A program made the translations under genes and the position numbers. From a virus (lineage: Duplodnaviria; Caudoviricetes), in the IMG/VR virus record IMGVR_UViG_3300031998_000083, positions 556 to 64,555 of that record: a DNA stretch of 64,000 nucleotides; one strand, 5' to 3'. This document shows, piece by piece, positions 16,256 through 52,121 of the stretch; positions within the stretch are counted from its first letter, which is position 1, and every line of letters begins with the position of its first letter. The notes beneath the pieces were generated by a model, which did not search any database, was not told the origin of the DNA, and worked only from the letters and a program-made list of their open reading frames with translations.

Positions 16256-19200
16256 CTATTTCTTGCTCTCTGCCCTCATCAGGATCTCCAGCGCTTCCTT
16301 GCGCCACTGACGGATATTCTTCATGATGGCCTCGTTGGCCTTCTCGTCACCGTCGGTACTGAACTGACGCTTTCCTGGAGCCAGCAAGTCAGGCTCGTTA
16401 CCCTTCTTACGGTTTCCCTTCCGGCCTGAAGGTGTGTCGTACTTACCGTTGCGGATCCAGTCGAGGCGCTTCTTGACCTCAGCCTTGGTTCTGTCGCCGG
16501 CATCGCTCTCACGGTAATCCTTCAGCTTGGCATCGAGCATCTCCTCCTCGCGGATATCCTCATACTCCATCCGCTCCTGGTACATGTGCTGATACCAGTT
16601 CTTATCGAGATCCTGCTTGGCGGTCAGGTCGGCCACTGGAGCCACACCCATACGCTGGGCTATGATCTTCGCATACTTACGCTTCTCCTCGGCACTCTCC
16701 GAACGAGCCAGGTTGTGCATCAGCTCCTTGTCGGTCAGGCGCTCCATACGCTGCTCAACAGCCTTGTCAAACTGCTGCTGGATCTTATCCATCTTCTCCT
16801 GGCGCTTGTCGTCGCCACGGAACCAGCCCATGACAGGCGCATCCTTCCAGTGCTTGTAGTTGGCATAGCGACGGGCCATCTCCTCATAGGGCAGCTTCTT
16901 GGCATCCTCCACGTTCATACCCAGCTCGTCGATATACTTGTTGCGCCAGGAACTTGTCGGGGCGTTCATCAGTCGCATGATGAAGAGGGCTATCTCCTTC
17001 GAGTTGGCCAGATCGTCGTTGCCTACATCCTTGGTGAACGGCATCCAGTCTGGATTACCGTAGTCCATACAGGCATTCCACATGTCGGTGAAGGTCTGCG
17101 GGTTCACGCCGACGGCACTCTGCATACAGATATTGAACACATCCTGAGCTGCTGCATACTTGTCGTAGCCCATCTTCTTGATCATGCCCTGTATGTCGGC
17201 CATCAGCGGCAGCGGGTTCACCTCGTAGTCGCCTCCCTGCTTCAGGGCAGCATCGATACCGGCACCCCACCCCTCTTTACGGATGGCCTTGCGCGTCTCT
17301 TCCGAGGCAGCCGTGCGGCTGATAAACTCACTGAACAGGTTGCCTGCGGCCATTCCCTCCGTAGGTCCGGCGATCATAGCCCTGACGGCAGCATCGGTCA
17401 GCATCTCCTTCTTCGTCTCGTCGTCGTCGCCCATCAGAAGGTATGGCAGGCTGGCACCGATGTTCCAGGCTGTGGTCACACCGAACATCATGTTCAGCAG
17501 ACGGGCCACGTCGTGACGGGCAGCGCGCGCATACTCCTTCTCGGCAGCCTTGCGGGCCTCAGCCTCATCAAGGTCGAACTGATCCTGCAGCTGGCGTGTC
17601 ATGAAGTTGATGCTGTCCTCTTTATAACCTTTCTGCGCCCTGTGGCTGAGGTTACGGGCAGCGTCCACCCACTGCCGGGTATAGGCCATCGAAGAGTTAC
17701 GGAACACTGACAGCATATTGGCAGCCACCGTGCGGTCTTTCTGGATCGCACTGACAAAGGCGCCCTCGCTCGATTGCTGCGTCAGGTTGTAGCCGATCTC
17801 GGCATCCTGAAGGGCGCGCTTACGGGCCACCTCGTCGGAGGCGCCGATATCCTTGTACTTCTTATAGCGAGCCTCGTAGATCGATCTGGCGCCGACGGCA
17901 CAGGTCACGCCGTCGACCAGCGCGTTGGGACTCATACCCAGACGGGTGGCCATCTGCACGACGTTGGTCTTCCACATCTTCCAGTCCGTAGGATCGTCCA
18001 TCAGACGGGTGTCGCCCACCTGGCGGCTCTTCCAGCGTTTCTTGAACACGGGCATATTCTCCATCGCCCACTTCCACGATCCGTAGGGGTTCATGCTGTT
18101 CTTCACGAAGTCGCCCAGATCGACGTCATGCAGGAAAGCTGGCGCCGACAGGATCTGCTTGAAGGCGGTATAGACGCGGAAGTTGATCTTCGCGGCCGTC
18201 ACACCCTTGGCGATATTCGAGATCGCCTTATCCACACTGCCAGGCTTGGCTTTGGGGTCGTATTTACCGGCAGCCATGCTGGCGGTGTTCTTGAATGCTT
18301 CCCATAGGGCATCTCCAGAGCCGTAGATGGTGTTCATGTTCTTCACCTTATTGCGGAAGGTGGTATAGCTCAACAGGGTGCCTATATCACGGTTCCACTC
18401 AGCCGTGGCAGCCCAGCGCTCCATGTCCTCCACATGCTCAATAATTAGACTGAGGGCATCGGTATGCAGGATATCCAGCGGAAGAGCGTTCTTTGTACGC
18501 TTGATGATATTGCCGGTAATAGTTGACGGTTTCGATTCTCTGTCTGGAACATTTACATCCTCTTCCTGATATCTTGCATCATTGATGATCCTAATAGGGA
18601 AGTAGTTGTCGATGGCAGCCATGGGCGCACCGAACATCCGTTCGTGTACCTTATTATAGGCTGTGCGCTTGCTCGGCAGATATTCATCCTGCAGCCAGTC
18701 GCCCAGCTCTTTCAGTCTGGGATCGAGGAAGTCCTTGATAGCCTCCACATTCTCCTCGTCGATTCCCATGTTACGGAGCTTCATACGTCCGTCGGCCATC
18801 TTGTCGGCCATGTAGATATAAAGCAGGTTGCCCTGGTTGAGCGTGAACGTCTTCGGGTTCTCACCGTCAAGCACCTCCACCTCCATCGTCGGGAGCCTGC
18901 GCTCCAGCTCGTAGAGGTCGCTCCAGCGCTTCACCTTGTCGCCGAACACCTCACGGGCCTTGGCATCCAGCTCTTCCTTGGCCTTCTGCTCGTTGACATA
19001 CGATCGGTCTACGGAGTCTATCCAGTTACGCATGAAGTAGTCGTACAGGTGGCCCTCGCCCTTCGCGTTACGGCCTCCGAACTGTCGGAGCATCTGCTCA
19101 AAGGTGGCCAGCGGCTGCAGGAAGAAGTTGGCAGGCTTACCCTTCTGCTTCTCCCTCATGGCGTCGGCAGGCTTGCCGGCAAGGTCGAAGTTGGCGATCT

Positions 19201-22200
19201 GCTGGATATGCTTCACACGCTCCTTGTCGCGCTCCACAAACTCCTTGGCACCCTGCATGCTCTCGCCGATGTTACCCTCCAGGCGACCGATGATGTCGCC
19301 GAACAGTCCGATACGTTCGATCTTGTTCTCCATCATCGCCTGATCGATGGCATCCAACAGCTCCTGCTGGGCCTTGTATGAGCGTCCGCTGCCCTTATAG
19401 TTCTCTACGGCAGCCTTATATACACGGTCAAGATCGGCATACTCGTCGCGGCTGGCCTCGATGTTCTCCTGGTACTGGAGCGCGATAGACAGACCCTCGT
19501 AATCCTGCTCCCACATCGGGGCCTCCTCGTCGTTACGGGCCATCTTCTCGACCACCTCGCTCATACGCTCACGGATCTTCTCGGCATCCATCCTGCCCTC
19601 GCGCGCCTGGCGGAAGGCCTGGATCATGCGCTGACCCTTCAGCTCCAGCCTGCCCTGCTTCTCCACTCCCTGGGCTGTCTTGCTCAGTTCCTTAACAGAA
19701 GAGAGTTTCGTCACGCGCTGGTCGAGGTTACGCAGCTGGTTGTCAACGAGGATATTCATGATGCTGTCAATTTCACGCTTGATATCTTTGGCACCGGTGG
19801 CGTTCTTCACCGCCGACAGCATACGCTCCATCTCTCCGCGTCGCAGGTTGTCGCCGAAGCCCATCTTCATAAACTCCTGGGCGAAGTCGGTCACAGCCTT
19901 CACAGTGGCCTTGTCGTAGGCCTTCTGCTGACTCATGGCGTGACGGATCTGCTGCAGCTCTGCAGCCACGCGGCGCATCTTGGCCGAAGGGCTGTCAGGA
20001 TAGCGACGCTCGTTCTCACGGGCTGCCTCCAGCACATCCTTATCGTCGCGCTTCTGGCGGTAGTCATCCAGCTTCGGGGCCGTCTGCCAGAGCGACTTCT
20101 CACGGTTCCACTGCACCAGACGCTTCGCATAGTCGAGGGCTGCCTCGCCCTGCTGCATCCTAGGCTTCTCGCTGGGGCCTGTAGCCGTCTCGCCGATGGC
20201 ATTGCGCTCACGCCACTTCTTCATATCGGCATCCCACTTGTTCCAGTACTGGCGCTCCTCCGCTGTCATCTCCGGCTCAGAACTGCCCGTGCGTTGGAAT
20301 TTTGGGGCCTCATCTGAAGATTTTCGCTTATTTTCTTGGTCGTTTGGAATATTTTTCGTATCTTTGCCCTCAGAAAAGGAGATGTTGTCATCGGCAGCGA
20401 CAGCCCTGCTGCCAAAAGTGTCAATAGGGGTTCCAGCGGTATTGGCAGATGACAACTTCTCCTTTTTCGTTTTACTGTTGTCAAATGCTGTCAGTACCCA
20501 CTTCTTCCCATTGTCCTCCTGGGCCAGAACTACACGATATCCATCCTTTGTAATCTCAATATTATTTCCGTTCTTACCTACGCTGCCATTATTGACAACA
20601 TCGTCCAGTACGGCAGACAGCTCATCGATATCCTTGAAGTCGTGCAATGTCTCGATGTGCTTTCTGATGATATGGGACAGGCCTTTTCCCCTGTAAGGGT
20701 TATGAGACTCGCCCCATACAAGATCGATATCGCCCACCTCGTCACGGTGGAACACACCCAACAAATCACCACCCTTCTTTTTAACTAAGAAGTCAACAGC
20801 TTCTTTAGGCTTACCCTTGAACTGATCGTAGACCTCGCCGAAGTCACCGGTACCGACAGGCTTAATATCCTTGATGTTCATCGAGGTACCGTCATCCATG
20901 ATAATCACCTGATCCTCGCGGGGAACATCCTCGGTCTCTGAGGCGAGGCTGTTTCTGCGCTCCTCCTCAGACATATTCAGGCGCTTATCGACATTACGTG
21001 CCTCTACCTCACCGGCCAGACGGTGATACAGATCCATGGCATCACTCTTGGCAGGAGCCTTGGTCTCTCTCAGACGATCTATCTGCTGGTTTATATTATC
21101 GTACTTACCTGCCAGATTAACGGCTTGATTCTGCAAATAGAAGGTGTATTCACCAACAGTCTTACCTACCAGGTCGGCATAGTCTTTCTTCTCTTCAGGA
21201 CTTGAACTCAGTATCTTGTTAATGGCATCAAGCTCAGTCTTAATGTTAGCCTTTTCGGCTTCCTTCTTGGCTATAATAGCATTGATACCCGTCTCTGAGG
21301 TGCTGGTATAAAGATTACCACCCTGTGCAAATCCCTCAATATCCTGAATGGCGTGCTGGATCTCATGCAACAGGGTGCCATAGACATTCTCGTTATTGAG
21401 CTGATTGTCGCCGAAGCGCTTCAACTCGTTATAACCTATCTTTATACCGTCCTCTCCGAAGCTGCCGGCTGTACCTCCCTGCAGGGAAGTGAAAGTTACC
21501 TTCAGATCCTTCAGTTCAGGATAGTATTTGAACAGTTCTTTATCCTCGCCCATCAGCTCACCAAGGGACATTGACACGCCTTGCTCGTCATACTCCTTTA
21601 CCTTATTGCCTGCTTCAAGATACTGCTTCCAGATCTTTTCCTTTTGTTTGCGCATCTCCCGATACTTAGCTTTCTGCTCTTCGGAGTAGCGGCTGTCAAT
21701 ACGGCCAGGGATGGCGTTTGTCAAGCTCTGGTACTTCTGCAGAAGATTATCTTCCTCCTTACCGAGTCGAGACACCTCTTGATCGTGTTCCAGGCGTGCT
21801 TGTTTGTATTTGCTGACGATATCAACGTCGGCATCGGGGATCTCGTAGCGCCACTGACCGTCGGCACCGCGCTCCCAGCCTGTAGCATACTTGATTGCCT
21901 TGGGATCCACTCCGGCTTTCTCGGAATCCTCTGCCAGGGCCAGGTTTCGGCTCCTCTCGTCGCCACCTTCGGCCTTGTCGGCAGCCTGAGTGCCCTCCTT
22001 GCCTACCATCTGGAACATGATATCATCACGTCCGCCGACGGCATCCATGGCGACCTGCTTACGGTTGGCATCCTTCTGATCTTCGGTACCGGTATTGTCA
22101 TAGGTGCGCACGTCAAGACCGGAATTCTTCAGGGCCTCAACGATCTCAGGAGAAGTGGTCTCAGGCACTACGGCCACGGCAAACTCGTTCAGATATACAG

Positions 22201-25200
22201 GACGCTCAAATTTGGTCTCAAAGTAACCCGTCGGGAACTTCTTCTGCACCGCGTTGACAAACTGCTCGATGGTCTGACGGTCCTCAGCAGACAGATCGTA
22301 ATTGTATTCCCTCTTCAAGTAACTGCTGATGTTCTTATAATGGTCAAGGGCGTCGCCCAGGATATTATCACCATTATACCAGTCGCCATTACCAAGCTTG
22401 TCAGCAATGGCGCGAAGCTTCTGGCCCCACTCCTCATGGAAAGCCTCATGCTCTTCCTTAGTGGTGTTCAGATTGGCTTTGTTCTTCCTGATACCTTCAA
22501 GTGTTTTCTCCTTGCTGGCCACCTTTGCTATCCAGTTGCCGATGCTGCTCCAGTTAGTGGCGCCATTGAGGCCTTCCTTCTTCATCAGCTTGGAAGCATT
22601 CTCCAGGGTGTTGCGTACCCACTTTTGCCGGCCCTGATAGTCGGTACCGTTGAAGAGCCATTCCTCCACACCGTAACTGTCGGCCTTATCTTGCAGCCAT
22701 TTGTCGAAGTCCTGCTGGAGATTCTGCTCCTTCACGGCCTTAGCAGCCTTGCTTATAGTCTCTTCGACATTCGGTTTGCCTTCACTGACAGCCGATCTGC
22801 GCACAGCATACTCAAAGTTATTGAGGTTATGCAGAAGCTCTCCGTACTTCTCCAGCTCTTCAAGACGAGCGCGTTGCAGGTTTGTGAACGGGGTATTCTT
22901 GTCTTCCTTGATCCTTTCCTTAAGCTTTGCTATACGCTCCTCGGCAGGCGTCACAGGTTCGCCGATGCTCTCCTTATAAGCACGGTACATCTCGGCGATC
23001 TCCTTGATCTGCTCTTCAGGTAGATTGCGTACCTCCAGATTACCTTTGTCGGTAAGCTCATCGATACGCTTTGCAACATCCTCACCATAAGGATTCTCGT
23101 TGAGTACCAGCTCTGGGTTCAGACCCTTCTCCTTCATATACCAGTAGGCAAGGCGCTCCTGTCCTGCCTCCTTATCAAGCCAGGTGTCAAAGGCCATCCT
23201 CATATAGCTGGCTACCTCTCCGGCATCCTCATTCAGGCTTCTGATATCTTTCCAGAACTTAGACATTCCCTTATCGCTCATACGCTTCTGCACCTGCGGA
23301 TAGGTAGGAGTCCAGGCATCTGCGGTAAAGGTGCCGGCATTGTTGCCTGTGCGGGAGTCTATCAGACTTGATTTCGGGATCAGGGAGATATCGCCGTAGT
23401 CTGTGTGCATGTGGTTGTTGGTGTCAACGACTGCAAGGCTCGGGTTAGCCAGTCCTCCCTGCTTCAACACCTTTCGGAGCTTATCCTCACTCAGGTTATG
23501 AACACCCATCAGGGTACGCTCGATCTCTGCCTGAGAGCGAAGCTTACCGCTGGCAGCCTGGCGCATACGCTCACGAGGATCCACACCATTGAGCATATCG
23601 GCCAGGATGCGGTCTGCAATCTGGTTGGCATTGCGGTACTTCCAGCCCATCATCTTAGCCACACCCTCCCAGAAGCGGTTGAGGATATTCTTCAGGCGCT
23701 GCATGGCGGTTACAGCCTCAGCCTTGCCAAAGACACCACCGTTCTCGGCTGCCACTTCGTTGGCGATCTCACGCAGGCGCTCGGCACCTCGCTTACCGGA
23801 GAACTGGGTGATGATCTCCTCGATGAAGTCATCCTCCCTGCCCTCTTTAGAGAGTTCAGGATAGTCACGCTTCACGCGGTCAATGATCGGCTGCACTAGC
23901 TTGTCGGTGAGCATCACACGCTTGATATCGTCCCACTCCTCGGGACTCGTCTGACGCTTCATCTCTGCCCACAGGTGGCCGTACTCATGCACCGGCGTCT
24001 CGCTCATGGCAATACGCGGATCCAGGTAGATCTTTCCCTTATAGGTATATCCGTAGGCATGGCCGTCCTTCGTCTTGAACAACATCGGGCGTCCATGCAT
24101 ATCAAACACCCTCGCCTGCATGGAGGCGGCTTCTTTCTGATCCAGCATGTCCTGCAGGCCTTCATTCTCGATGCGGTCAAGAAGATCCCAGCGTAATGAC
24201 AGCATGCCGTAGCCGTACTTCTCAGACATTGCGTTCAAGTTGTCGGCCATTACCTGGCCAAGACCTTTGACACCGTGTTTGGCAATATATTCCTGCCTGA
24301 TCTTCTCTTCTAACTCATCCACGTTCAGGCCTTCTTCATCAAGCATCTGCTCGTTGATACGCTTATAGGCCGCTACGACCTCTTCAGGAGTCAGCTTTGC
24401 CACTTTATCCTGAATATCCAGAGACTCCCGGATATTGGGATTCTTGACAATCCTTTCCTCGATCGGCCTCATATCAACGGTCTGTGCGACGCTGCCTTCA
24501 TCCACCTTCTGCTGGCGGATCGGATTGCCGTTGATGTCCTCGGTGACGGATCCGGCAGGCTTTGCGCCGATCTTCACACCCCGTTTCTCCAGCTCTGCAC
24601 GCTGGGCAGGCGTAACGACGTTGTAAGGCACCTCGATATCGGTCCCCTCCAGCTGTTTGGCGATCATGTCGGCCACCTCGCTGTCAGGCACGATGCGGTT
24701 CACCTTGCTATAGCGCGAAAGTGTCACCTGGCGCTGTCGGTCGGCAGGCAGCTGCCCGTTCACGACTCCACTGTGCCAGTCCACATTACCTACGGCGTCC
24801 TTGGCTCCTTCGGCCTTATAGCCGCTGGTCAGTTCACTCTCAGGGATCTCCACCTCTACAACAACCAGCTCGGGACGCTTATAGGCGCTGGTGAACTGAT
24901 CGTTAAGCCCGGATGTAGAGGTATGGAAATAGGGATTGTAGGCAGCAGGCACATTGCCCTGGCCCTTCTGTCCCTTGTTAAGCACGAACTTTCCGTTCTT
25001 GATAAGATCTGGACGCTCCTCGGCCTTCTCCCATACACCGATCTCAGTAGGCTCGCGCATCTCACCGTCCACCTTCGCGGACATCGGAGGATAGAGCTTA
25101 CCGTCGATCAGCTGCATAGCCCGGTAGCGCTTCACGGTCTTACCGTTGTTCAGCTCTTCAAGCTCGGCCTCATCTGTAACCTTCTGCGGCTTGATCTCCG

Positions 25201-28200
25201 CTTCGGGATCTTCAACCGCCATACGGCTGTTATAGTCATCAAGGATCCTCTGACCTTCCTTCCAGTCGGTGCTTACCTCGATGCCAGCCTGACGGAGGTG
25301 ATCCACCACGGCGTCACGCAGGGCCTTTTCCTGCTGCTCGGGAGTAACAGGCTGCCAGTCCTTGGGACGTCGAACCATGCTCTCACGGGTAAAGAAGTCG
25401 GTATTTCGGCCCTTGTTGTCCTTGAATCCGAAACGCTTGTAAAAGTCCATCAGGCGCTTGATGGAGGTGGCGCCGAAGCTGGTGTCAGGTGTCAGATCCA
25501 GCGTCCAGCCTTTCTCGTCGGCAAGCCTTGCAAGGTCTTCCATGAAGCGGGTGCCGTTGCCCTGTCCCTGACTGTCAACAATGAAATGTGTCAGCGTGAG
25601 GTGGTCGCCCAGACGCGACAGGGTGACGTTCTTAAGGCCGTACTCCTTCAGGAGGTCGGGATCATCGATGGAGATATCCCGCTCGTCAAGCTTCTGCAGG
25701 GCTGAGTCGAAGGCAGGATTGCCTTGCTCCACCCTATGCTCATCCATCTTTGCAAGGCGCTCGTCATACTTCCTGACGGCCTCATCCATCTTCTGGTAGC
25801 GGATACCGCTGTCGATCCAGTCCTGTTCCTCGCGGCGCATGGCCTCCTCGGCGGTCTTCATACGGTCGCGGATGATCATGTTGGAAATGTCTGTCGGCTT
25901 CTCGGCACCAGTAAGGACGTTGTAAATGATGTTGCGGAGATCCTGATCCGAATACTGTTCCTTCATTCCTTCCGGCAGGGACTCATGGACGGACTCGGCA
26001 AACTGCTTCAGGCTCTTTCCCTTTCCATTGGGAGCCAGCCACGGGTTGAAGCCCTTGGTGTCGCCACCGAAGCCCCGGCTGCCGAAGCCTGTCTCATCCT
26101 TCAGGCCTACGATCGTGTTGCCTCCCTGGTCATAGCTTGTGTATGCCAGGAATCCCTCTCCTGGCTTTGGCACGTCGCCAAGTGCATCGGCTATGTATTC
26201 CTCTACAGTACGCGGCTGCATAGACTCATCATCAAGGGCTATGGCAGCCTCCTCATTGCCTTTGTACAGCTTACGGAGCCGCTCGACCTTCTCCTTCCGC
26301 GTGCCATAGCCGATGGTACGCTCGGCAGCGGACGCCCTGTCGCGCTGTTCCAGGCTGATCAGATCCTCGAAATGATCTTTCCTGTATTCGTCGTAAAGTT
26401 CATTGAATGCCTTTCTGTCGCCGGACTCGTAGAGATTCCACAGCTTTTCCCTTTCCTCGTCAGTCAACACGCTGACGACCTTGTCGGCGCTCTTCTTGTT
26501 CCTGAAGACTCCCAGAAGCTTCTCTTCAGTCGTGAGATTCTTCTGCCAGACGTTGTTTTCGATGGCCTCACCGGTCTTGATGACGTTATACGACTCCCGT
26601 CTGGCCTCTCCGATGGGATTGCCGTCGGCGTCGTAGTCGCGGCGGGTGACAACTGCCTGCCCGTCATGGCTGATATGCTCAATGGTCATATCAGACCGTA
26701 TGCCGCGGCTGTCGGTGAAGCTGAAGGTGCGCCCGACGTTGTCCTGGACGGCCTTCTGGTATTTCTTCGCGGTCTTCTGGTCTACGGCTGGTAGTCCGTC
26801 AGCAGACCCAGTGCCACCCTCTCCCGTCTCGAGAGTTTGTCCGGATCCGGCTCTTCCGGCTGCTGGCTGTCCTCCAGCTGCTCCAACTTCTCCATCAGCT
26901 CCGGTCTCTGCTGCAGGAGTCTGCCTAGACGCTCCCGCGACTCCCTCAGCTGGACGTTCTTCGGATGATCCTTGTACTTCTCCGTCTGCGGGGGGTACCA
27001 TACCACTTCCTCCTCCGTGCACTGGTTCCCCGGATACACCTGGTCGAAGATGTCGCACATCTTGCTGAAGTATGCGTCGTCCCAACTCGTCCACCCTTCG
27101 TTCAGTAGCGGGGGTAACGTCTGGTATTTGTCGTGCAACATCACGTAGTCCTCGTCCGAGAGAGGCAGCTTGATCTGCTGTAAATCTTCCTTCGTTAATT
27201 CCATACTCAAAAATATCTAATAGTTCGTTTAACTTTGCATCATCAAGGGAGTAATCCCACTTCTCAGCCTCATCAGCAGAGACGCGGCCTCCTTCAGGAC
27301 GTTCTGCGGCCTTGTTGCCGCTGTTGTCGAAGCCGATGATCTCCACGTCAGGATGGAGCTTCCGCAGGTCGGCGATCTTTCCCTGATTCTCCAGGAAGGC
27401 CTCGTTCACGAAATACTCCAGAGCGAGGAACCGTCCTGTCCTGAGTCCTCTTTCAACGGTATTGTTGAACGAGGTGTAGGCATCATTGTAGACGGCTACC
27501 ACCTGAATGTCTGTCATTCCGGCCTTCTTCGCCTGCTTTATGGCTGCGTCAAGGCTCTTGACATTATTAAAGGCAGAGTCGTAGACCATTCCGCGTCCGC
27601 TAAAGTCCATGTTCCTGGTGGCGGTACTCTTGCCTGCGCCTCCTGCTCCCGTCAGCAGCGTGATGCTCGTCTTTCCGCTTGCGACGGCGTCTTTGAGCAT
27701 CTTATCGTAAATAACGGCCGTCAGCCGCTTTCCCTGTGCTTTGAAATCCGGTACGTTCTTCCCGTTATAACCTATCGGAGTAAGAGCGTCTCTGAGTTTA
27801 TCGGGATCCAGAAGATTACCATGCAACTTGATGTAAGTATCAACGATCTCGTCCATGTGTTCGTCTACCCACTTGGCCTGACTCTCTGGATCTGTTGCAA
27901 AGTTACGAATTTCTTTTGGATTTACCAAATTTATCCACGACTTTTTTGCATTATATACCTCAGAAAGTGCATTTTCGGGTACTCCGGCGGCTTTTGCTTC
28001 CTGATAAGCGACCTCTAACTGGTCAAGATCCTTGGCTCTGATGATGTTGGCGGTATGTGTAGTGAAGGCCTCAGCCAGCTTTGCCTCAGCCTCCTGGCCA
28101 CGTCTGGCAAGATCCTGCCAGTACTCAGCCTTCTGACGGGCCTCGGCCAGCTTATCCTCATGGGCTTCGAGGTCGGCCATGTCCGTAATGGATGAGGTGT

Positions 28201-31200
28201 CTGTCTTCTGAAGCTTATCATACTCCCTTGCAGCACTCTCGGCTATCTGGGCGATCATCTTACCGGCCTTCTCCTCGCCGTATTTCTCTGTCAGCTCGGC
28301 CAGGGTGTCCTCGGGCGTAGCCTTCTCGTACACCTTCTTACCCTTCTCGTCAACGGGAATACGGGAAGGAGCGGCGCTTCCGGATTCCAGCCGCCCATCA
28401 TCTTCGGCTGATGCGCTTACTTCACCGGCGGCATTTCCGCTCTGTATTTCTTTACCCTTTCCTTCCTGCTGGCCCTCAGGCTCTTGGGCTGCCTCCAAAG
28501 GAACCTCGGGCGTTTCCATTGATCCTTCGGGTGTAATCTCCTCCGGACGGTTGGCAGCATCGATCTCGTTGCTTTTCGCCTTGCGGTACTCGTCGATGTC
28601 AAATGGCTGCGGCTCTCCCAGGATTTCCGCAGCATTGCCGTTTTCGTCAGGAACCACTTCCGTCTTTGCCCACGTCATGTTTCCGTTCTCGTCGGATATG
28701 GTGCTTACCATGTAGGTCTTGCCGTCTGCCCCGACGAATGTCTCTCCGACCTCCTGTGGAACCTCAGGCGTGCCTGGTGCCAGCTCGATGGAGTCGTCGG
28801 CAACCTTCATCAGCTGTCCACGGAGTCCGTCCATACTGTCGTTGGCCTCGATCAGTCTGCGAGGATCAGTCACACCGGTCACCACTACATCATTGGGATT
28901 GACAACGTCGATCTCACCGGTATTGGCATCGCGGACGATCACGGCCCCGCTGCCGTCGGTAGATACCAGCTTGCCCTCGGGAGTGATCTGGAAGTGGCCT
29001 GCGCTGACATACACATCCCTACCCCTCGAATTGCCTGTGATCAGCATACCACTGTCAGGATGGGTGTTTCTGCGGATCTCGGCATTGGCGGCATCCACCT
29101 GCTCATCGACGGTCTTGATGGCCTGATCCATCATACCCTGCATACGGGCTGCGGCATTGAAGTACTCCTTGGCTGCCTCCAGCATCGGTCCGTCCACGTC
29201 GCGGCGCATGGCCAGCTCTGCCATCTTCTCGTCAGGATAGTCGGCAGCAGCCATCACCTCTTCGGCAAACTCCTGGCCGTACTGTGCAAGGGCCTCTTCT
29301 GCTACCTGAGCATCTACAAGGGCGAAGTGGCGCTCCTCGGGAGTGATCTTCTTTCCTTCCTCAAACCTGCGTCTGGGATTATACTCATCCTCAGGGAAGG
29401 CATTGCGGGAGATTACACCATATACATTATTAAACTGGTCGGGATCGAGGCTGGTGTCATTGGGGTTAAGGGCCTTCTGCACCATATCTGCGGCATCCAA
29501 GGGGGATATGCCGTTGGTCTCGGCGATCTCGAGGACAATAGCTTTGTGCTGCTCCTTGCTGGTGGCGTTCCACATGTTGACGGCATCATTGAGGCTGAAC
29601 TCGCTCTGACACTCCTCGCGCCACTGCTCGGCATCGCTGAAGGTATCAAACTTCAGGTCGCGCACACAGTTACCGTCCTTGTCGCGGGTCTTCACAATCA
29701 CACTGCCATCGGCATTATGTACGATATCGGCACCTGTCTCGAGTCCGGCACGGTAGACACCTCCCAGGACTCCTGCCACCTTCTGCTTCACGACGGCTGG
29801 GATCTCGGGATTGCTCATGAAAGCGTTATAGTTGTCGGCCAGCTGACGGCGCATCTGCTCACCCTCGGGAGTAAGCTTTTTCTTACCGTTCACCTCGCTG
29901 ATAGCTGCATCAGGGTGCATGCTGCTAAGAGTCTCCAGCAGGCTACGACCTTCGGCTGTGTCGCGCACATAAGCCTCCTCTTCCTTGGTGAACTTCATGC
30001 CAGAAGGTTTGGCTGACATGGCCTTACCGACGGCTTTACGCACACCGTTCTTATAGATATCGGCACCTGTCTCGAGGGTCTTGGTCAGCAGATGACCACC
30101 AGAGGCCTTCATCACTCCCAGCTTCTCCATGGCCTCCAGGGATCCCTCGAAGGGATTGGTGAAGCCTTCCTCGCCCTGTACCATCTTGGCCAGTTCCTCG
30201 GTGGCATACATCGTCTCGGCCTCAGCAGCGAAACCGGCTGCCTTGGCACCTACACGGGAGATACCGGTCAACGGCTGGGAGAGAGCCTGGGACATGGCAC
30301 CCGTAACACCGAAGGCTGCACCGGTGGCCAGACCCTCGGCGGTGGATCCAGCCAGTCGCATGGGGTCAAACTCGCTGTCGCGCATCTGACGGGCTGCCTC
30401 TGACGTGGCGTTATAGCCTCCCATGGTGAGGGAGCTGCTGATAACATGCTGCATCAGGTAGTTCTTCATCCTCGCGCCTACACTGTTCTCGAGGGCTGCA
30501 CCTACGATACTACGGGCAGCAGTCTCACTGAGGCCCTTTCCCATGAGATTCTGGATCTGGCGCTCGGCCACCTTCTTAGCCACCTGTCCTGACACCTTGC
30601 CATACAGGCCGAAGAAGGGAGCATCGGCAGCAAAGGACACACCCATCTGGGTAAGCTTCGCTCCTGTGCCTGGGTTATAGTTGGGGTTGAGACCTTCCTC
30701 GGTCATGGCCTCAGCCTGGTTCTTGATCTGACGCTGGCCCTTAGACTCGGTGATGGTGTTATAGAGCATACCGATGATGCTGTTACCCAGTCCGTTCATG
30801 ATATACTCTACGGACGATTTGGGAAGTTCGCGCTTCACCAACGTATCGGTAAGCCTGGTGGCAAGGTCCTGCTGGATCTTGGGCTTGATGATGTTCTCGA
30901 TGTATTCGGTACGGTCGATACCCATCTTATCAGCCTCCTTACCTACCTCCTCGGCAAAGGCACTGTCCTTATACAGACCTTCCATCTGCTGCTGGAGATA
31001 GTTGAGGATCTTCTCAGGATCTTTAGCCTCGTTGGCCTCGCGGACATTACCAAGGATGCCAAAGCCTCCGGCCTGTCCAATAGATCTTACGGCACTGGTA
31101 TTTTCGCGGCCCTCGTTGAAGACCTCGCTGGCTTTCTTGTCAAACTCGGCAATGGCCTTGTCTACGGCTGGAGCGACAACGGAGCTGGTAATACGGTTGA

Positions 31201-31906
31201 CACCCTGCTGCACCTCATCCTCCCACTGGCCCTGGGTTCTGACCACATGCTGGTTAGCCTCAGGGCTGCCGGTATCTACGAGCGGCTGACTGCGGCGCTC
31301 TTCCTCGCGCTGCATATTCTGGAGCTGCCGGACGGTATAGTCATTCATCCGCTCGATCTCTGCATGCTGGGCGACGGACAGATCCTGACGGAAGGAAGCA
31401 TTATAGCCGATACCATCAGGCTGATCGGTGGTACGCACCTGACCAGGAGCAAACGGTTTATATTCACGGCTCTGGCCTGTGCCACTGCCTGCGGTTCCCC
31501 AGGGAGTACCAGCGGCCTTATCCTCAGGAGCCTCAACGGCTGGAGCCTGATATGCAGCTGCCGGAGCCTGCTGGGGCTTCGGCTGGCTCTGCGGCTGCTG
31601 TTTTTTAGGCTTGACATTGGATCCGCTAGGATGACGTTTGAGGAAGTCGTCATAGGTGGCGTGATCCACTTCCTGCATCTCACCGCCTATCTTTATCCGC
31701 CTAACTGTCATATCGCGGTCAAACTGACCGTACTCAGGCACGTTCCAACCTGCACCTTTTGCGGCTTCGTATATGGAACGGCGGACATCCTTATTGTCCA
31801 TGTTCCGGTTAAAATCATCAAAAGAACCAAGGTCAAAGCCGTCATCAGTAAGATTGTCGTACATCTTACGACGATTCTCACTTCCGTATATCTTGCCGTT
31901 TTCCAT
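16256..31906 (-). CDS. Giant (5216 aa) polyvalent, probably virion-ejected protein
   Basis: Zeta-toxin-like P-loop (LTGAGGAGKST ~27625-27655), GNAT (QGQGNGT...FYKRFGF ~25410-25660), ART-like YRAM/FHTS domain (~24580-25150), HEYGH and HEIQH zincin motifs, LPD23-like TGWERGADGQWRYEI, PBECR-like DIDLVWG...GLSHIIRKH (~20480-20860). Confidence 0.9.
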   Translation of the reverse strand: MENGKIYGSENRRKMYDNLTDDGFDLGSFDDFNRNMDNKDVRRSIYEAAKGAGWNVPEYGQFDRDMTVRRIKIGGEMQEVDHATYDDFLKRHPSGSNVKPKKQQPQSQPKPQQAPAAAYQAPAVEAPEDKAAGTPWGTAGSGTGQSREYKPFAPGQVRTTDQPDGIGYNASFRQDLSVAQHAEIERMNDYTVRQLQNMQREEERRSQPLVDTGSPEANQHVVRTQGQWEDEVQQGVNRITSSVVAPAVDKAIAEFDKKASEVFNEGRENTSAVRSIGQAGGFGILGNVREANEAKDPEKILNYLQQQMEGLYKDSAFAEEVGKEADKMGIDRTEYIENIIKPKIQQDLATRLTDTLVKRELPKSSVEYIMNGLGNSIIGMLYNTITESKGQRQIKNQAEAMTEEGLNPNYNPGTGAKLTQMGVSFAADAPFFGLYGKVSGQVAKKVAERQIQNLMGKGLSETAARSIVGAALENSVGARMKNYLMQHVISSSLTMGGYNATSEAARQMRDSEFDPMRLAGSTAEGLATGAAFGVTGAMSQALSQPLTGISRVGAKAAGFAAEAETMYATEELAKMVQGEEGFTNPFEGSLEAMEKLGVMKASGGHLLTKTLETGADIYKNGVRKAVGKAMSAKPSGMKFTKEEEAYVRDTAEGRSLLETLSSMHPDAAISEVNGKKKLTPEGEQMRRQLADNYNAFMSNPEIPAVVKQKVAGVLGGVYRAGLETGADIVHNADGSVIVKTRDKDGNCVRDLKFDTFSDAEQWREECQSEFSLNDAVNMWNATSKEQHKAIVLEIAETNGISPLDAADMVQKALNPNDTSLDPDQFNNVYGVISRNAFPEDEYNPRRRFEEGKKITPEERHFALVDAQVAEEALAQYGQEFAEEVMAAADYPDEKMAELAMRRDVDGPMLEAAKEYFNAAARMQGMMDQAIKTVDEQVDAANAEIRRNTHPDSGMLITGNSRGRDVYVSAGHFQITPEGKLVSTDGSGAVIVRDANTGEIDVVNPNDVVVTGVTDPRRLIEANDSMDGLRGQLMKVADDSIELAPGTPEVPQEVGETFVGADGKTYMVSTISDENGNMTWAKTEVVPDENGNAAEILGEPQPFDIDEYRKAKSNEIDAANRPEEITPEGSMETPEVPLEAAQEPEGQQEGKGKEIQSGNAAGEVSASAEDDGRLESGSAAPSRIPVDEKGKKVYEKATPEDTLAELTEKYGEEKAGKMIAQIAESAAREYDKLQKTDTSSITDMADLEAHEDKLAEARQKAEYWQDLARRGQEAEAKLAEAFTTHTANIIRAKDLDQLEVAYQEAKAAGVPENALSEVYNAKKSWINLVNPKEIRNFATDPESQAKWVDEHMDEIVDTYIKLHGNLLDPDKLRDALTPIGYNGKNVPDFKAQGKRLTAVIYDKMLKDAVASGKTSITLLTGAGGAGKSTATRNMDFSGRGMVYDSAFNNVKSLDAAIKQAKKAGMTDIQVVAVYNDAYTSFNNTVERGLRTGRFLALEYFVNEAFLENQGKIADLRKLHPDVEIIGFDNSGNKAAERPEGGRVSADEAEKWDYSLDDAKLNELLDIFEYGINEGRFTADQAASLGRGLRDVARQIPDVTPATERRVDELGRRILQQDVRHLRPGVSGEPVHGGGSGMVPPADGEVQGSSEERPAEGVAGASRQTPAAETGADGEVGAAGGQPAAGRAGSGQTLETGEGGTGSADGLPAVDQKTAKKYQKAVQDNVGRTFSFTDSRGIRSDMTIEHISHDGQAVVTRRDYDADGNPIGEARRESYNVIKTGEAIENNVWQKNLTTEEKLLGVFRNKKSADKVVSVLTDEEREKLWNLYESGDRKAFNELYDEYRKDHFEDLISLEQRDRASAAERTIGYGTRKEKVERLRKLYKGNEEAAIALDDESMQPRTVEEYIADALGDVPKPGEGFLAYTSYDQGGNTIVGLKDETGFGSRGFGGDTKGFNPWLAPNGKGKSLKQFAESVHESLPEGMKEQYSDQDLRNIIYNVLTGAEKPTDISNMIIRDRMKTAEEAMRREEQDWIDSGIRYQKMDEAVRKYDERLAKMDEHRVEQGNPAFDSALQKLDERDISIDDPDLLKEYGLKNVTLSRLGDHLTLTHFIVDSQGQGNGTRFMEDLARLADEKGWTLDLTPDTSFGATSIKRLMDFYKRFGFKDNKGRNTDFFTRESMVRRPKDWQPVTPEQQEKALRDAVVDHLRQAGIEVSTDWKEGQRILDDYNSRMAVEDPEAEIKPQKVTDEAELEELNNGKTVKRYRAMQLIDGKLYPPMSAKVDGEMREPTEIGVWEKAEERPDLIKNGKFVLNKGQKGQGNVPAAYNPYFHTSTSGLNDQFTSAYKRPELVVVEVEIPESELTSGYKAEGAKDAVGNVDWHSGVVNGQLPADRQRQVTLSRYSKVNRIVPDSEVADMIAKQLEGTDIEVPYNVVTPAQRAELEKRGVKIGAKPAGSVTEDINGNPIRQQKVDEGSVAQTVDMRPIEERIVKNPNIRESLDIQDKVAKLTPEEVVAAYKRINEQMLDEEGLNVDELEEKIRQEYIAKHGVKGLGQVMADNLNAMSEKYGYGMLSLRWDLLDRIENEGLQDMLDQKEAASMQARVFDMHGRPMLFKTKDGHAYGYTYKGKIYLDPRIAMSETPVHEYGHLWAEMKRQTSPEEWDDIKRVMLTDKLVQPIIDRVKRDYPELSKEGREDDFIEEIITQFSGKRGAERLREIANEVAAENGGVFGKAEAVTAMQRLKNILNRFWEGVAKMMGWKYRNANQIADRILADMLNGVDPRERMRQAASGKLRSQAEIERTLMGVHNLSEDKLRKVLKQGGLANPSLAVVDTNNHMHTDYGDISLIPKSSLIDSRTGNNAGTFTADAWTPTYPQVQKRMSDKGMSKFWKDIRSLNEDAGEVASYMRMAFDTWLDKEAGQERLAYWYMKEKGLNPELVLNENPYGEDVAKRIDELTDKGNLEVRNLPEEQIKEIAEMYRAYKESIGEPVTPAEERIAKLKERIKEDKNTPFTNLQRARLEELEKYGELLHNLNNFEYAVRRSAVSEGKPNVEETISKAAKAVKEQNLQQDFDKWLQDKADSYGVEEWLFNGTDYQGRQKWVRNTLENASKLMKKEGLNGATNWSSIGNWIAKVASKEKTLEGIRKNKANLNTTKEEHEAFHEEWGQKLRAIADKLGNGDWYNGDNILGDALDHYKNISSYLKREYNYDLSAEDRQTIEQFVNAVQKKFPTGYFETKFERPVYLNEFAVAVVPETTSPEIVEALKNSGLDVRTYDNTGTEDQKDANRKQVAMDAVGGRDDIMFQMVGKEGTQAADKAEGGDERSRNLALAEDSEKAGVDPKAIKYATGWERGADGQWRYEIPDADVDIVSKYKQARLEHDQEVSRLGKEEDNLLQKYQSLTNAIPGRIDSRYSEEQKAKYREMRKQKEKIWKQYLEAGNKVKEYDEQGVSMSLGELMGEDKELFKYYPELKDLKVTFTSLQGGTAGSFGEDGIKIGYNELKRFGDNQLNNENVYGTLLHEIQHAIQDIEGFAQGGNLYTSTSETGINAIIAKKEAEKANIKTELDAINKILSSSPEEKKDYADLVGKTVGEYTFYLQNQAVNLAGKYDNINQQIDRLRETKAPAKSDAMDLYHRLAGEVEARNVDKRLNMSEEERRNSLASETEDVPREDQVIIMDDGTSMNIKDIKPVGTGDFGEVYDQFKGKPKEAVDFLVKKKGGDLLGVFHRDEVGDIDLVWGESHNPYRGKGLSHIIRKHIETLHDFKDIDELSAVLDDVVNNGSVGKNGNNIEITKDGYRVVLAQEDNGKKWVLTAFDNSKTKKEKLSSANTAGTPIDTFGSRAVAADDNISFSEGKDTKNIPNDQENKRKSSDEAPKFQRTGSSEPEMTAEERQYWNKWDADMKKWRERNAIGETATGPSEKPRMQQGEAALDYAKRLVQWNREKSLWQTAPKLDDYRQKRDDKDVLEAARENERRYPDSPSAKMRRVAAELQQIRHAMSQQKAYDKATVKAVTDFAQEFMKMGFGDNLRRGEMERMLSAVKNATGAKDIKREIDSIMNILVDNQLRNLDQRVTKLSSVKELSKTAQGVEKQGRLELKGQRMIQAFRQAREGRMDAEKIRERMSEVVEKMARNDEEAPMWEQDYEGLSIALQYQENIEASRDEYADLDRVYKAAVENYKGSGRSYKAQQELLDAIDQAMMENKIERIGLFGDIIGRLEGNIGESMQGAKEFVERDKERVKHIQQIANFDLAGKPADAMREKQKGKPANFFLQPLATFEQMLRQFGGRNAKGEGHLYDYFMRNWIDSVDRSYVNEQKAKEELDAKAREVFGDKVKRWSDLYELERRLPTMEVEVLDGENPKTFTLNQGNLLYIYMADKMADGRMKLRNMGIDEENVEAIKDFLDPRLKELGDWLQDEYLPSKRTAYNKVHERMFGAPMAAIDNYFPIRIINDARYQEEDVNVPDRESKPSTITGNIIKRTKNALPLDILHTDALSLIIEHVEDMERWAATAEWNRDIGTLLSYTTFRNKVKNMNTIYGSGDALWEAFKNTASMAAGKYDPKAKPGSVDKAISNIAKGVTAAKINFRVYTAFKQILSAPAFLHDVDLGDFVKNSMNPYGSWKWAMENMPVFKKRWKSRQVGDTRLMDDPTDWKMWKTNVVQMATRLGMSPNALVDGVTCAVGARSIYEARYKKYKDIGASDEVARKRALQDAEIGYNLTQQSSEGAFVSAIQKDRTVAANMLSVFRNSSMAYTRQWVDAARNLSHRAQKGYKEDSINFMTRQLQDQFDLDEAEARKAAEKEYARAARHDVARLLNMMFGVTTAWNIGASLPYLLMGDDDETKKEMLTDAAVRAMIAGPTEGMAAGNLFSEFISRTAASEETRKAIRKEGWGAGIDAALKQGGDYEVNPLPLMADIQGMIKKMGYDKYAAAQDVFNICMQSAVGVNPQTFTDMWNACMDYGNPDWMPFTKDVGNDDLANSKEIALFIMRLMNAPTSSWRNKYIDELGMNVEDAKKLPYEEMARRYANYKHWKDAPVMGWFRGDDKRQEKMDKIQQQFDKAVEQRMERLTDKELMHNLARSESAEEKRKYAKIIAQRMGVAPVADLTAKQDLDKNWYQHMYQERMEYEDIREEEMLDAKLKDYRESDAGDRTKAEVKKRLDWIRNGKYDTPSGRKGNRKKGNEPDLLAPGKRQFSTDGDEKANEAIMKNIRQWRKEALEILMRAESKK
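20374..20473 (+). ncRNA. Candidate antisense structured RNA inside the giant gene
   Basis: TTG-N20-TATCTTTG promoter (20336-20366); 18/19-bp closing stem, two inner hairpins, U-tract. Confidence 0.55.
26782..27204 (-). CDS. Nested out-of-frame gene (140 aa, acidic) within the giant gene
   Basis: Native G/C-ending codon usage in this frame; AT-rich region with A at -3 before the ATG; the host frame here reads as a G/A/R-rich linker. Confidence 0.7.
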   Translation of the reverse strand: MELTKEDLQQIKLPLSDEDYVMLHDKYQTLPPLLNEGWTSWDDAYFSKMCDIFDQVYPGNQCTEEEVVWYPPQTEKYKDHPKNVQLRESRERLGRLLQQRPELMEKLEQLEDSQQPEEPDPDKLSRRERVALGLLTDYQP

Positions 31907-50077: not shown

Positions 50078-50138
50078 GTTCAGTCCTCCTGTTTGTTTCG
50101 TTTTATTATCTTAGTCCCTTACTCAGCAAATTCAGTGA

Positions 50139-50213
50139 ATTTGGTTACCAAATTCGGCGGTTTTGGTCACCAAATTCGGCGGTTTTGGTCACCAAATTCG
50201 CCGATTTTGGTCA
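50139..50213. repeat. 22-bp tandem repeat x3.4 with internal palindrome TTTGGTNACCAAA
   Basis: Units at 50139, 50161 and 50183, partial at 50205. Confidence 0.9.
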
Positions 50214-50348
50214 GACGCTCTGCCCTCCTCTTACGGTTAAGCCTTACGACCTCCTGTATCTTCCGGTGCAGATCTATGGTCTCCCTGACGTGCGCCATAT
50301 CGAGGACGGGCAGATCCACATAGTTGAAATCCGTGTTTTTACTTGCTT

Positions 50349-50778: not shown

Positions 50779-50970
50779 TTAAGGAATGACCTTGGTGGTT
50801 TCGATGCCTCCGTATTCGGCCAGCACCTTCTTCCTGGTCAGCTTGGCGTCTTCCGAGTTCGATGTGTAATTCAGAGCGGCGTAGAGCGTTGTCCTGCCGA
50901 TCTTCAGGGCGCTGCAGATGCTGTCAGCCTTGCCCCTAGGAATCACGATAACTTTTCTTCTTATTGCCAT
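50779..50970 (-). CDS. Cro-like HTH repressor
   Basis: 'ICSALKIGRTTLYAALNY'; divergent from cI. Confidence 0.75.
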   Translation of the reverse strand: MAIRRKVIVIPRGKADSICSALKIGRTTLYAALNYTSNSEDAKLTRKKVLAEYGGIETTKVIP

Positions 50971-51016
50971 AACAATTTTTATATTATAAATATTTTGAAA
51001 TCTCAGTAAAAATTCG

Positions 51017-51088
51017 TATCTTTGCACTCTGTACCGCTGTCGGAACACTTTCGGAACTAATTCGGAATAGGTTCGCAGTGCAAAGGTA
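51017..51088. promoter_or_regulatory. Face-to-face cI/cro promoters with three TCGGAA repeats
   Basis: TATCTTTG (+, 51017-24) and TACCTTTG (-, 51088-81); TCGGAA at 51040, 51051 and 51062. Confidence 0.7.
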
Positions 51089-51158
51089 AGAAATAATTTC
51101 TTATATTACTATATATTATTCAATAATTTAATAATATTTATAATATAACATTTCTTGT

Positions 51159-52121
51159 ATGAATAAAAAAGATCGATTTAACAAGGCATACAATTTCTTG
51201 AAATACGAAGGTGTTATCAAGAAACAGAGTGACGTTGCCAAAGCAATGAAAGCGTCGCAGTCGAATGTATCAAGTGCATTAAATGGAAAGGAGTCCGTCC
51301 TTACAGACAACTTCTTGATGCGCTTCTCTAGCGCTTTCAAGCAGATATCGCTAGACTGGCTTCTCAATGAGCAAGGACCGATGACAACGATCGTTCCGGA
51401 GTTCAAGGACGAGAATAAGCCTCAGATACTGGAAGGCAATGCTGACAAGGATGTGATAGCCGAGCAGTTTAAGATGACCGAGCGTATCAGGGAGCTGATC
51501 CATGAGACGGGCCATCTGCCTAAGACGTTCGCGCTAGAGGCAAACATCGAGGTAAACAACTTCCTCCGTAAGATGAAGGGAGAGTATGTGTGGTCGGTGG
51601 CCGACGTACATAAGATCTGCGACAACTTCCGAGTGCGAAAGAGCTGGCTTGTGGACGGTGAGGGGCAGAAATACCGGCTGCCCGACGAGGTGCTGGAGAC
51701 CATGCCTGCCCGTCGCTCCTACGACAAGAACGTAGGCATACCGTATTATAATGTGGACTTTGCTATGGGGTTTGATCCTGGCGTCAACGACCAGACGATC
51801 AATCCGCAGTACATGATAGACTTCGCCCCTTACAACCGTGCCGACTGCTGGTGTAATGCCAGCGGCGACTCCATGGCGCCAACGATAGCCAACGGCGATC
51901 TGATAGCCATCAAGGAGGTGCGCGACCCGTCATCATGCCTCATCAACGACGAGATCTACGCCATTGTCACCACCAACGACCTGCGAACCATCAAGCGCGT
52001 CCGCGACAATGGCGATACGGTGACGCTCATTCCTGACAATAAGGAATACTCCGAGCAGACCATCAGCAAGGAGCTGATCCTGAAGGTCTATAAGGTGATG
52101 GGGAGCATGAAGATGTTTTAA
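51159..52121 (+). CDS. CI-like repressor: two XRE HTH domains + S24 peptidase
   Basis: HTH1 ending LDWLLNEQG, HTH2 ending SWLVDGEG; S24 motifs SGDSMAP and TIKRV. Confidence 0.88.
   Translation: MNKKDRFNKAYNFLKYEGVIKKQSDVAKAMKASQSNVSSALNGKESVLTDNFLMRFSSAFKQISLDWLLNEQGPMTTIVPEFKDENKPQILEGNADKDVIAEQFKMTERIRELIHETGHLPKTFALEANIEVNNFLRKMKGEYVWSVADVHKICDNFRVRKSWLVDGEGQKYRLPDEVLETMPARRSYDKNVGIPYYNVDFAMGFDPGVNDQTINPQYMIDFAPYNRADCWCNASGDSMAPTIANGDLIAIKEVRDPSSCLINDEIYAIVTTNDLRTIKRVRDNGDTVTLIPDNKEYSEQTISKELILKVYKVMGSMKMF

Follow-up and report, generated by a model that had tools for sequence, protein, structure and literature searches.

Short cis-antisense RNAs of phages, as in the OOP/cII pair of lambda and sar of P22, are made from constitutive promoters of their own as structured, terminated transcripts. 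The subject of this study is a predicted small-RNA gene on the + strand (positions 20336-20475) of a 64,000-nt stretch of viral DNA, taken from IMG/VR record IMGVR_UViG_3300031998_000083 and termed here “the window” at its full length; it lies antisense to the codons of a linker that follows PBECR1, a predicted RNase domain. The present element resembles OOP and sar as a short unit that amounts to scarcely more than a promoter of its own and a structured RNA antisense to a phage gene. It differs in that it is overprinted on linker codons deep in a 15.6-kb gene, and it features a covarying three-way junction, conserved loops, and a tie to one domain superfamily across phyla.

In the type I toxin-antitoxin (TA) systems txpA/RatA and bsrG/SR4 of Bacillus subtilis, the two genes converge and overlap at their 3' sides, and the toxin is a small membrane peptide. 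The likeness to the present locus consists of a convergent RNA over the 3' side of the toxin region that is complementary by construction, with no protein antitoxin. However, the partner here is a BECR-fold domain of ca. 95 residues, usually housed in a polyprotein, and not a small hydrophobic peptide; further, degradation of the toxin mRNA would be hypothetical at this locus. In type III systems (ToxIN, CptIN, TenpIN), the RNA is encoded as tandem direct repeats that precede the toxin gene in the same orientation and are processed by the toxin. A structured RNA that neutralized an endoribonuclease would resemble these systems, and conserved loops and a closed fold fit such a role, but the window gene holds a single unit, transcribed from a candidate promoter on the strand opposite the toxin region, and the toxin has another fold. 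An earlier reading of the window, made from its sequence alone, had suggested a type III-like pair; the layout departs from that suggestion, with a single convergent unit in place of tandem upstream repeats on the same strand.

The immunity genes of BECR toxins (colicin D/E5 immunity, CdiI, BECR-Imm2) encode proteins (bioRxiv 10.64898/2026.08.28.747851). As in those systems, the candidate antidote follows the toxin domain directly and travels with it, but it would be an RNA gene on the other strand instead of a protein. Cis-antisense RNAs of Bacteroides (the DonS family and others) face chromosomal susC-like or small-open-reading-frame genes (Ryan et al. 2020, PMC7366714). They share with the present element a promoter of the sigma-ABfr type, a length of about 80-130 nt, and extensive secondary structure, but none has been reported inside phage polyvalent genes. 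The papers found on polyvalent proteins, PBECR and BECR toxins make no mention of antisense RNA, and term searches of those examined on BECR and RelE/ParE-type toxins returned no protein immunity partner of PBECR.

A candidate promoter antisense to the PBECR1 linker

The term “polyvalent protein” is used in the sense of Iyer et al. 2017, who also described the pattern of active-site residues in PBECR domains, classed MuF_C among them, and ranked PBECR RNases with the most frequent effector domains that polyvalent proteins contain (up to 26% of them; PMC5512222). PBECR1 of the window scored 62.2 bits against its Pfam family (cut-off 27.6). Both the His of the helix (..RKH..) and the Thr of the last strand (WVLTAFD) are retained; in the PBECR1 alignment (A5), H48 is invariant and T104 nearly so. 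The domain is predicted to be an RNase of ca. 95 residues with the BECR fold. On the minus strand, the gene encodes ...WVLTAFD NSKTKKEKLSSANTAGTPIDTFGSRAVAADDNISFSEGKDTKN..., i.e. the end of PBECR1 followed by a low-complexity linker.

Opposite this linker and within the giant gene, the + strand reads TTG-N20-TATCTTTG (20336-20366). The consensus for sigma-ABfr, the primary sigma factor of Bacteroidota, features a -7 box of TAnnTTTG (PMC7366714) and, some 20 nt upstream of it, a -33 element of TTTG. The -33 element of the window is CTTG as compared to TTTG, and across units the first T is mostly C; the T, T and G that follow are 82, 95 and 80% conserved at the fixed N20 spacing in 46 distinct units, despite differences in the encoded peptides. 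The sequence AGAA is found 5-6 nt downstream of the -7 box in relatives.

Antisense TAnnTTTG was present in 47 of 57 distinct PBECR1 linkers, compared to a mean of 2.9 and a maximum of 9 when synonymous codons were resampled. On the sense strand, the corresponding CAAAnnTA occurs in all ten linkers taken from eight loci, despite changes of G to N, D to V, and T to K or N, and the box is also kept through replacements among G, N, D and S in the linker peptide. Across 120 proteins, the residue two positions after the Lys was in every case T, K, N, M, I or S, residues that have codons starting with A, and the position directly after the Lys held D, V, G, S or H, whereas E, K and Q did not occur there. 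All replacements seen in the linker are ones permitted by CAAAnnTA. Codons were predicted from this rule for three further proteins, and the DNA agreed (e.g. DKGT = GAC AAA GGT AC). All 11 PBECR1 ends in full-length giant genes had the motif 122-149 nt downstream and in the same phase, and a PBECR1-anchored scan of IMG/VR supplied 80 further loci. Overall, the -7 motif is found in two codon phases, the G-K-D-T type and, among the loci from the IMG/VR scan, the A-K-I type (GCA AAG ATA). The linker peptide is conserved even between differing flanking domains, and what is conserved is the DNA; the apparent peptide motif S-x-G-K-D-T-K-N ... Q-E-N of giant phage proteins would be the imprint of a promoter on the opposite strand.

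TAnnTTTG was absent from the linker in PBECR1 loci with a G+C content above 0.6. In low-GC phages, TTGACT-N17-TGgTAGAAT was located on the antisense strand at the same position and in the same orientation as the TAnnTTTG unit. This sequence, a near-consensus sigma-70 promoter with an extended -10 element, is conserved although the peptides of the PBECR1 linkers differ (L071:1057-1180, L095, and L110 (about 1063-1190)). In the window as a whole, TAnnTTTG occurs 51 times (20.6 expected), with many occurrences at gene starts (e.g. 12561, 14411, 33455, 35194, 51017); the phage therefore appears to rely on host-type promoters. The promoter that had been proposed for the antisense strand of the linker is supported, as one of host type, by the excess over resampled linkers and by the placement of TTG at N20.

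Fold and covariation of the predicted RNA

The + strand between 20367 and 20480 folds as a three-way junction (20373-20467) at -44.6 kcal/mol (z = -4.81; none of 200 shuffled sequences was as good). The fold of the minus strand is weaker (-37.9 kcal/mol, z = -4.20). Arms at 20374-20392 and 20448-20466 are complementary at 18 of 19 positions, and a repeat search extended them to 22 nt (91%), making this the best-quality inverted repeat in the 64-kb window. By a rough estimate that assumes uniform base composition, chance would supply ca. 0.003 inverted repeats of this quality (18/19, arms within 200 nt) in a sequence of 64 kb. Covariance model R1 scored the window RNA at 115 bits. The promoter, arms, hairpins and T-run all lie where the sequence-only reading had located them (Table 1).

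Table 1. Features of the antisense element and its host gene in the window
Feature	Position	Strand	Basis or remark
Giant polyvalent virion protein gene, 5216 aa, 15.6 kb	16256-31906	-	Open reading frame list and Pfam; hosts the RNA element
-33-like element TTTTCTTG, TTG at 20336-20338	20331-20338	+	TTG conserved at fixed spacing
-7 box TATCTTTG, Bacteroidota sigma-ABfr type TAnnTTTG	20359-20366	+	Conserved beyond coding needs
Predicted small RNA, ca. 100 nt	20373-20475	+	5' end placed at 20372-20374 from promoter geometry; 3' end placed in the T-run
Closing stem, 5' arm	20373-20392	+	Fold, inverted repeat, arm permutation
Hairpin 1, 7 bp, loop ACAGCCC at 20400-20406	20393-20413	+	Fold, compensatory changes
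Junction strand AAAAG	20414-20418	+	Fold
Hairpin 2, 8 bp, loop GGGGTTCCAGCGG / GGGGUUCCAGCGG; conserved AGGGG at 20426-20430	20419-20447	+	Fold, compensatory changes
Closing stem, 3' arm	20448-20467	+	Fold, inverted repeat, permutation, covariation
T-run TTTTTCGTTTT, probable 3' end/termination signal; opposite strand reads KTKK codons	20463-20475	+	Sequence
PBECR1 RNase-like domain, coding region	20468-20752	-	Pfam PF18809, E 7.6e-17, residues 1119-1213 of second half

In most relatives, the closing stem starts ca. 6 nt past the box, encloses two hairpins, and ends before the T-run; T-rich tails follow it. The closing stems are wholly different between lineages (e.g. GGAATCC/GGATTCC and GAAACGTCAG/CTGACGTTTC). 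Arms paired within their own unit reached -20.3 kcal/mol, compared to -14.3 kcal/mol for arms taken from other lineages (0 of 10,000 permutations). Between the window and locus L005, hairpin 1 changes from GGCAGC/GCTGCC to GGGAAC/GTTCCC, and pairing is kept via non-synonymous changes (S to N, AA to VP). Loop sequences, in contrast to the stems, have stayed alike between these lineages.

RNAalifold, applied to six sequences, returned 30 pairs, 15 of which were compensatory. Model R1 found 24 loci. In 17 distinct sequences, 90.3% of the cells paired (70.1% when shuffled, 45-61% when slid), and compensatory changes were present in 27 of 30 pairs (14 of 15 in helices 1 and 2, 6 of 7 in hairpin 1, and 7 of 8 in hairpin 2), a figure reached by none of 500 shuffles; these 17-sequence counts lean towards the structure because the alignment was fitted to model R1. 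G-U pairs outnumbered A-C pairs by 65 to 14. Given this excess, the promoter and the T-run, the + (antisense) strand is taken to be the strand that folds. A “closed fold” was found in 42 of 45 units and in 187 of 450 random segments, and, with a T-run added, in 22 of 45 and 16 of 450, respectively. This criterion discriminates poorly, and the case therefore rests on covariation. Five giant proteins of >5000 aa (P0006, P0007, P0017, P0039, P0044) were compared at the protein level only.

The three-way-junction RNA of ca. 100 nt put forward by the sequence-only reading is supported, as a predicted RNA, by the stability of the fold and the compensatory changes, and both features that it had named as a check on PBECR homologs, covarying stems and a reverse TAnnTTTG, were recovered. 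Its suggestion of a tRNA-like decoy fared otherwise. ARAGORN called no tRNA gene within the window, and Rfam 15, including the skipping-rope RNA (RF02924), gave no match at the gathering score, the only matches being chance-level ones to microRNAs and small RNAs at E up to 10; the tRNA-like reading was rejected, as neither program revealed a tRNA feature.

There is also a hint of a loop-loop contact between the two hairpins. The CCC of hairpin 1 and the GGG of hairpin 2 (columns 42-45 with 86-88 of alignment A6; 20405-20406 with 20427-20430 in the window) are 95% paired, and two compensatory cells are located at one pair (C-G to G-C in L064, U-A in L045).

Distribution among PBECR modules

A scan of 11 giant genes revealed one to four units in each, with exactly one in the window gene. 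The extra units stand behind MuF_C, behind a probably PBECR3-like domain, and once behind a domain of unknown family, and all share the closed architecture. The unnamed domain with weak PBECR3 matches aligns to PBECR1 with the same order of motifs (hhalign E 0.001, probability 20%). The linkage to the PBECR RNase module, as first claimed for the window, extends across PBECR1, MuF_C and the probably PBECR3-like domain, and across polyprotein and solo contexts.

The solo context is represented by L069, L096, L105, L109 and L093, in which the open reading frame (ORF) stops right after PBECR1 and a convergent promoter-like box persists in non-coding DNA. The box faces the end of the ORF. The non-coding DNA of L069 and L096 folds, as predicted RNA, into clear three-way junctions that differ by compensatory changes, and that of L093 contains a motif, AGGGGTT..GGGGTT, resembling the loop of hairpin 2. 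The predicted intergenic convergent RNAs of L069 (1013-1092) and L096 (1016-1098) are ca. 80 nt long; in these two loci, a sense-strand hairpin and T-run may terminate the mRNA.

A conserved domain of ca. 150 aa (..AGTKHSLFRHYG..DDILRIP..YTV..FYTNKK), unnamed by Pfam but with weak PBECR3 matches and a PBECR1-like order of motifs, was noticed in L007, L009, L033 and L004 (A7; e.g. L007:7233-7772). The antisense unit behind it forms a class of its own, with the candidate promoter TTGTTGTACCTTTG and the peptide SGAKVQQNPE.

Scans anchored on the downstream domain yielded three loci in IMG/VR, one in genomes and four in metagenomes, several of them duplicates. Alignment of the 53-aa linker to IMG/VR gave pattern matches, none of which was confirmed by tblastn, and nearly everything found with a degenerate DNA pattern for S-x-G-K-D-T-K was a chance match. 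A metagenome-assembled genome (MAG) of Prevotellaceae contains a relative of the giant gene. In 151 genomes of the family of this MAG, model R1 produced one match, a false positive behind an extracytoplasmic-function (ECF) sigma gene, and no stand-alone chromosomal copy. Cultured phages with PBECR1 in structural proteins include Bordetella BPP-1 (bbp10; L117) and Pseudomonas Itty13 (L118), which are possible laboratory models. The antisense strand after PBECR1 of bbp10 has an AT-rich patch with TACAAT and no convincing promoter or terminator.

As for the host gene and the phage, Pfam assigned PBECR5, LPD23 and PBECR1 domains and a weak Zeta_toxin match to the giant injected protein of 5216 aa, for which 1323 homologous proteins were found at E <= 0.001. 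The window, which takes up nearly all of a 64.5-kb phage contig, also encodes a P22-like portal, a T7 gp14-like internal protein, an integrase, and a Rha/ANT antirepressor. Among the sequencing runs listed as containing it were DNA runs, from bovine gut, and unclassified ones but no RNA run, and a near-DNA search of a phage collection with the window gave no match.

Weighing the possible roles

It is very probable, judging from these comparisons, that 20336-20475 is a self-contained small-RNA gene overprinted antisense on the disordered-linker codons after PBECR1. That the RNA gene is real and linked to PBECR modules is well supported because the promoter motif, the covariation, the strand bias and the persistence in non-coding DNA all favor it, and a functional coupling of the RNA to these modules is likely. 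Further points weigh on the other side. A terminator consensus scan made no call at the closing stem, where the helix before the U-run is long, A/U-rich and multibranched. No antisense unit stands behind the PBECR5 domain of the window gene, and one unit of L035 (at residue 3381) lies behind a domain of unknown family. In L004 (7796-7902; P0016), PBECR1 has been lost, only ..MTAFD being left after a different upstream domain, and the whole unit is kept; a recombination joint would therefore lie inside the last strand of PBECR1. Finally, RNA sequence classes differ strongly between PBECR subfamilies, a pattern for which co-inheritance alone could account.

We tentatively favor a role as a dedicated antidote or regulator of the PBECR RNase module, a proposal that we rate somewhat short of even; the antidote role is favored because the RNA occupies the site at which BECR toxins of other systems carry the gene for an immunity protein. 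In the scheme proposed, the RNA polymerase of the host, with the primary sigma factor of Bacteroidota, would start ca. 7 nt past TTG-N20-TATCTTTG, independently of late transcription of the phage. The first bases of the transcript would pair with its last, forming a three-way junction of ca. 95 nt with two hairpins and conserved loops (ACAGCCC, AGGGG...), and a U-run would follow the closed junction. The unit is inherited with PBECR-fold modules, in polyproteins or at the end of an ORF, and the RNA would take the place of a protein immunity gene, for which the polyprotein has no room.

The mode of action of such an antidote is a matter of lower confidence. A structure-specific inhibitor that binds the PBECR domain (a pseudo-substrate immunity RNA, type III-like) is possible but doubtful as a specific proposal, and binding of the RNase domain is somewhat more likely than pairing with the mRNA. 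Pointers to binding are the loops conserved over diverged stems, the like motif in the non-coding DNA of L093, and the closed ends of the RNA. If the inhibitor reading were true, this would be the first RNA immunity factor of a BECR toxin, the toxin and its antidote would be nested on opposite strands of one ORF, each RNase module of a shuffling polyprotein would carry its own antidote, and the protein might even bind the RNA and bring it along into the virion. A dedicated RNA for each PBECR module would explain how phages make these enzymes safely.

Pairing with the mRNA belongs to the best-surviving alternative, which we nevertheless consider unlikely: a cis-antisense regulator, type I TA-like or lambda OOP-like, that pairs with the giant mRNA 3' of the RNase region. 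A double-strand RNase would cut the duplex, and the truncated message would lead to tagged and degraded protein or to less expression, such that the toxic module would be silent in lysogens or its synthesis would be timed. Precedents are RatA/txpA, SR4/bsrG and OOP/cII. The complementarity is perfect by construction, a host-type promoter would work in the lysogenic state, for which the phage possesses an integrase, and in the solo genes the final codons and 3' end region of the PBECR1 ORF are overlapped by the predicted RNA. The sense-strand mirror fold is stable (z = -4.2), which would allow loop-loop kissing, and structured cis-antisense RNAs exist in Bacteroides (PMC7366714). However, some 3700 codons of a late ORF precede the domain, which makes leaky synthesis seem a small risk for a lysogen, and a cut 3' of the domain would leave its translation possible. 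Moreover, self-complementary pairing requires neither conserved loops over diverged stems nor the motif of L093.

More improbable is a genuine small RNA whose function has nothing to do with the RNase, for example a trans regulator of host or phage genes, a decoy for host defense, or an RNA carried in the virion. Disordered linkers would simply be safe sites for overprinting, and the unit would travel with PBECR by descent. Conserved loops and a closed, stable fold would be expected of such an RNA as well, and the units behind domains unnamed by Pfam, together with the L004 unit that lacks PBECR1, fit it. Yet the association spans three kinds of domain (PBECR1, MuF_C, and the probably PBECR3-like one), different promoter types, and both polyprotein and solo contexts, and within the giant gene of the window a scan found none of the remaining linkers to carry a unit. 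Very improbable is the absence of any RNA gene, with a DNA joint for domain shuffling or a sense mRNA structure that paces translation past the domain and a promoter-like motif as by-product: a motif linker between different domain pairs, nucleotide identity above that of the flanks, and a sense strand that also folds well agree with it, but the box leaves its nn positions free, comes in two codon phases and has TTG at a constant distance, as suits a promoter and not mere homology, the promoter type changes with the G+C class of the host, G-U pairs far exceed A-C pairs, the T-run is on the antisense strand only, and the unit persists in untranslated DNA.

For the favored antidote or regulator, as for any small-RNA gene at this site, a linker sequence that was supposedly free would be constrained by an RNA fold, which bears on the annotation of such proteins and on the meaning given to conserved linkers. 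Since the unit is located within coding sequence, searches for RNA motifs in intergenic DNA do not see it, and more RNA genes may therefore hide in disordered linkers.

Two other features of the window were noticed. At 50122-50214, two 46-nt arms (76% complementary, 1 nt apart) consist of repeats of ACCAAATTCGGCGGTTTTGGT-like units and could be an operator- or origin-like array. At 50958-51169, an AT-rich 44-nt inverted repeat (77%) flanks a TATCTTTG box (51017) ahead of the gene at 51159 and may be regulatory.

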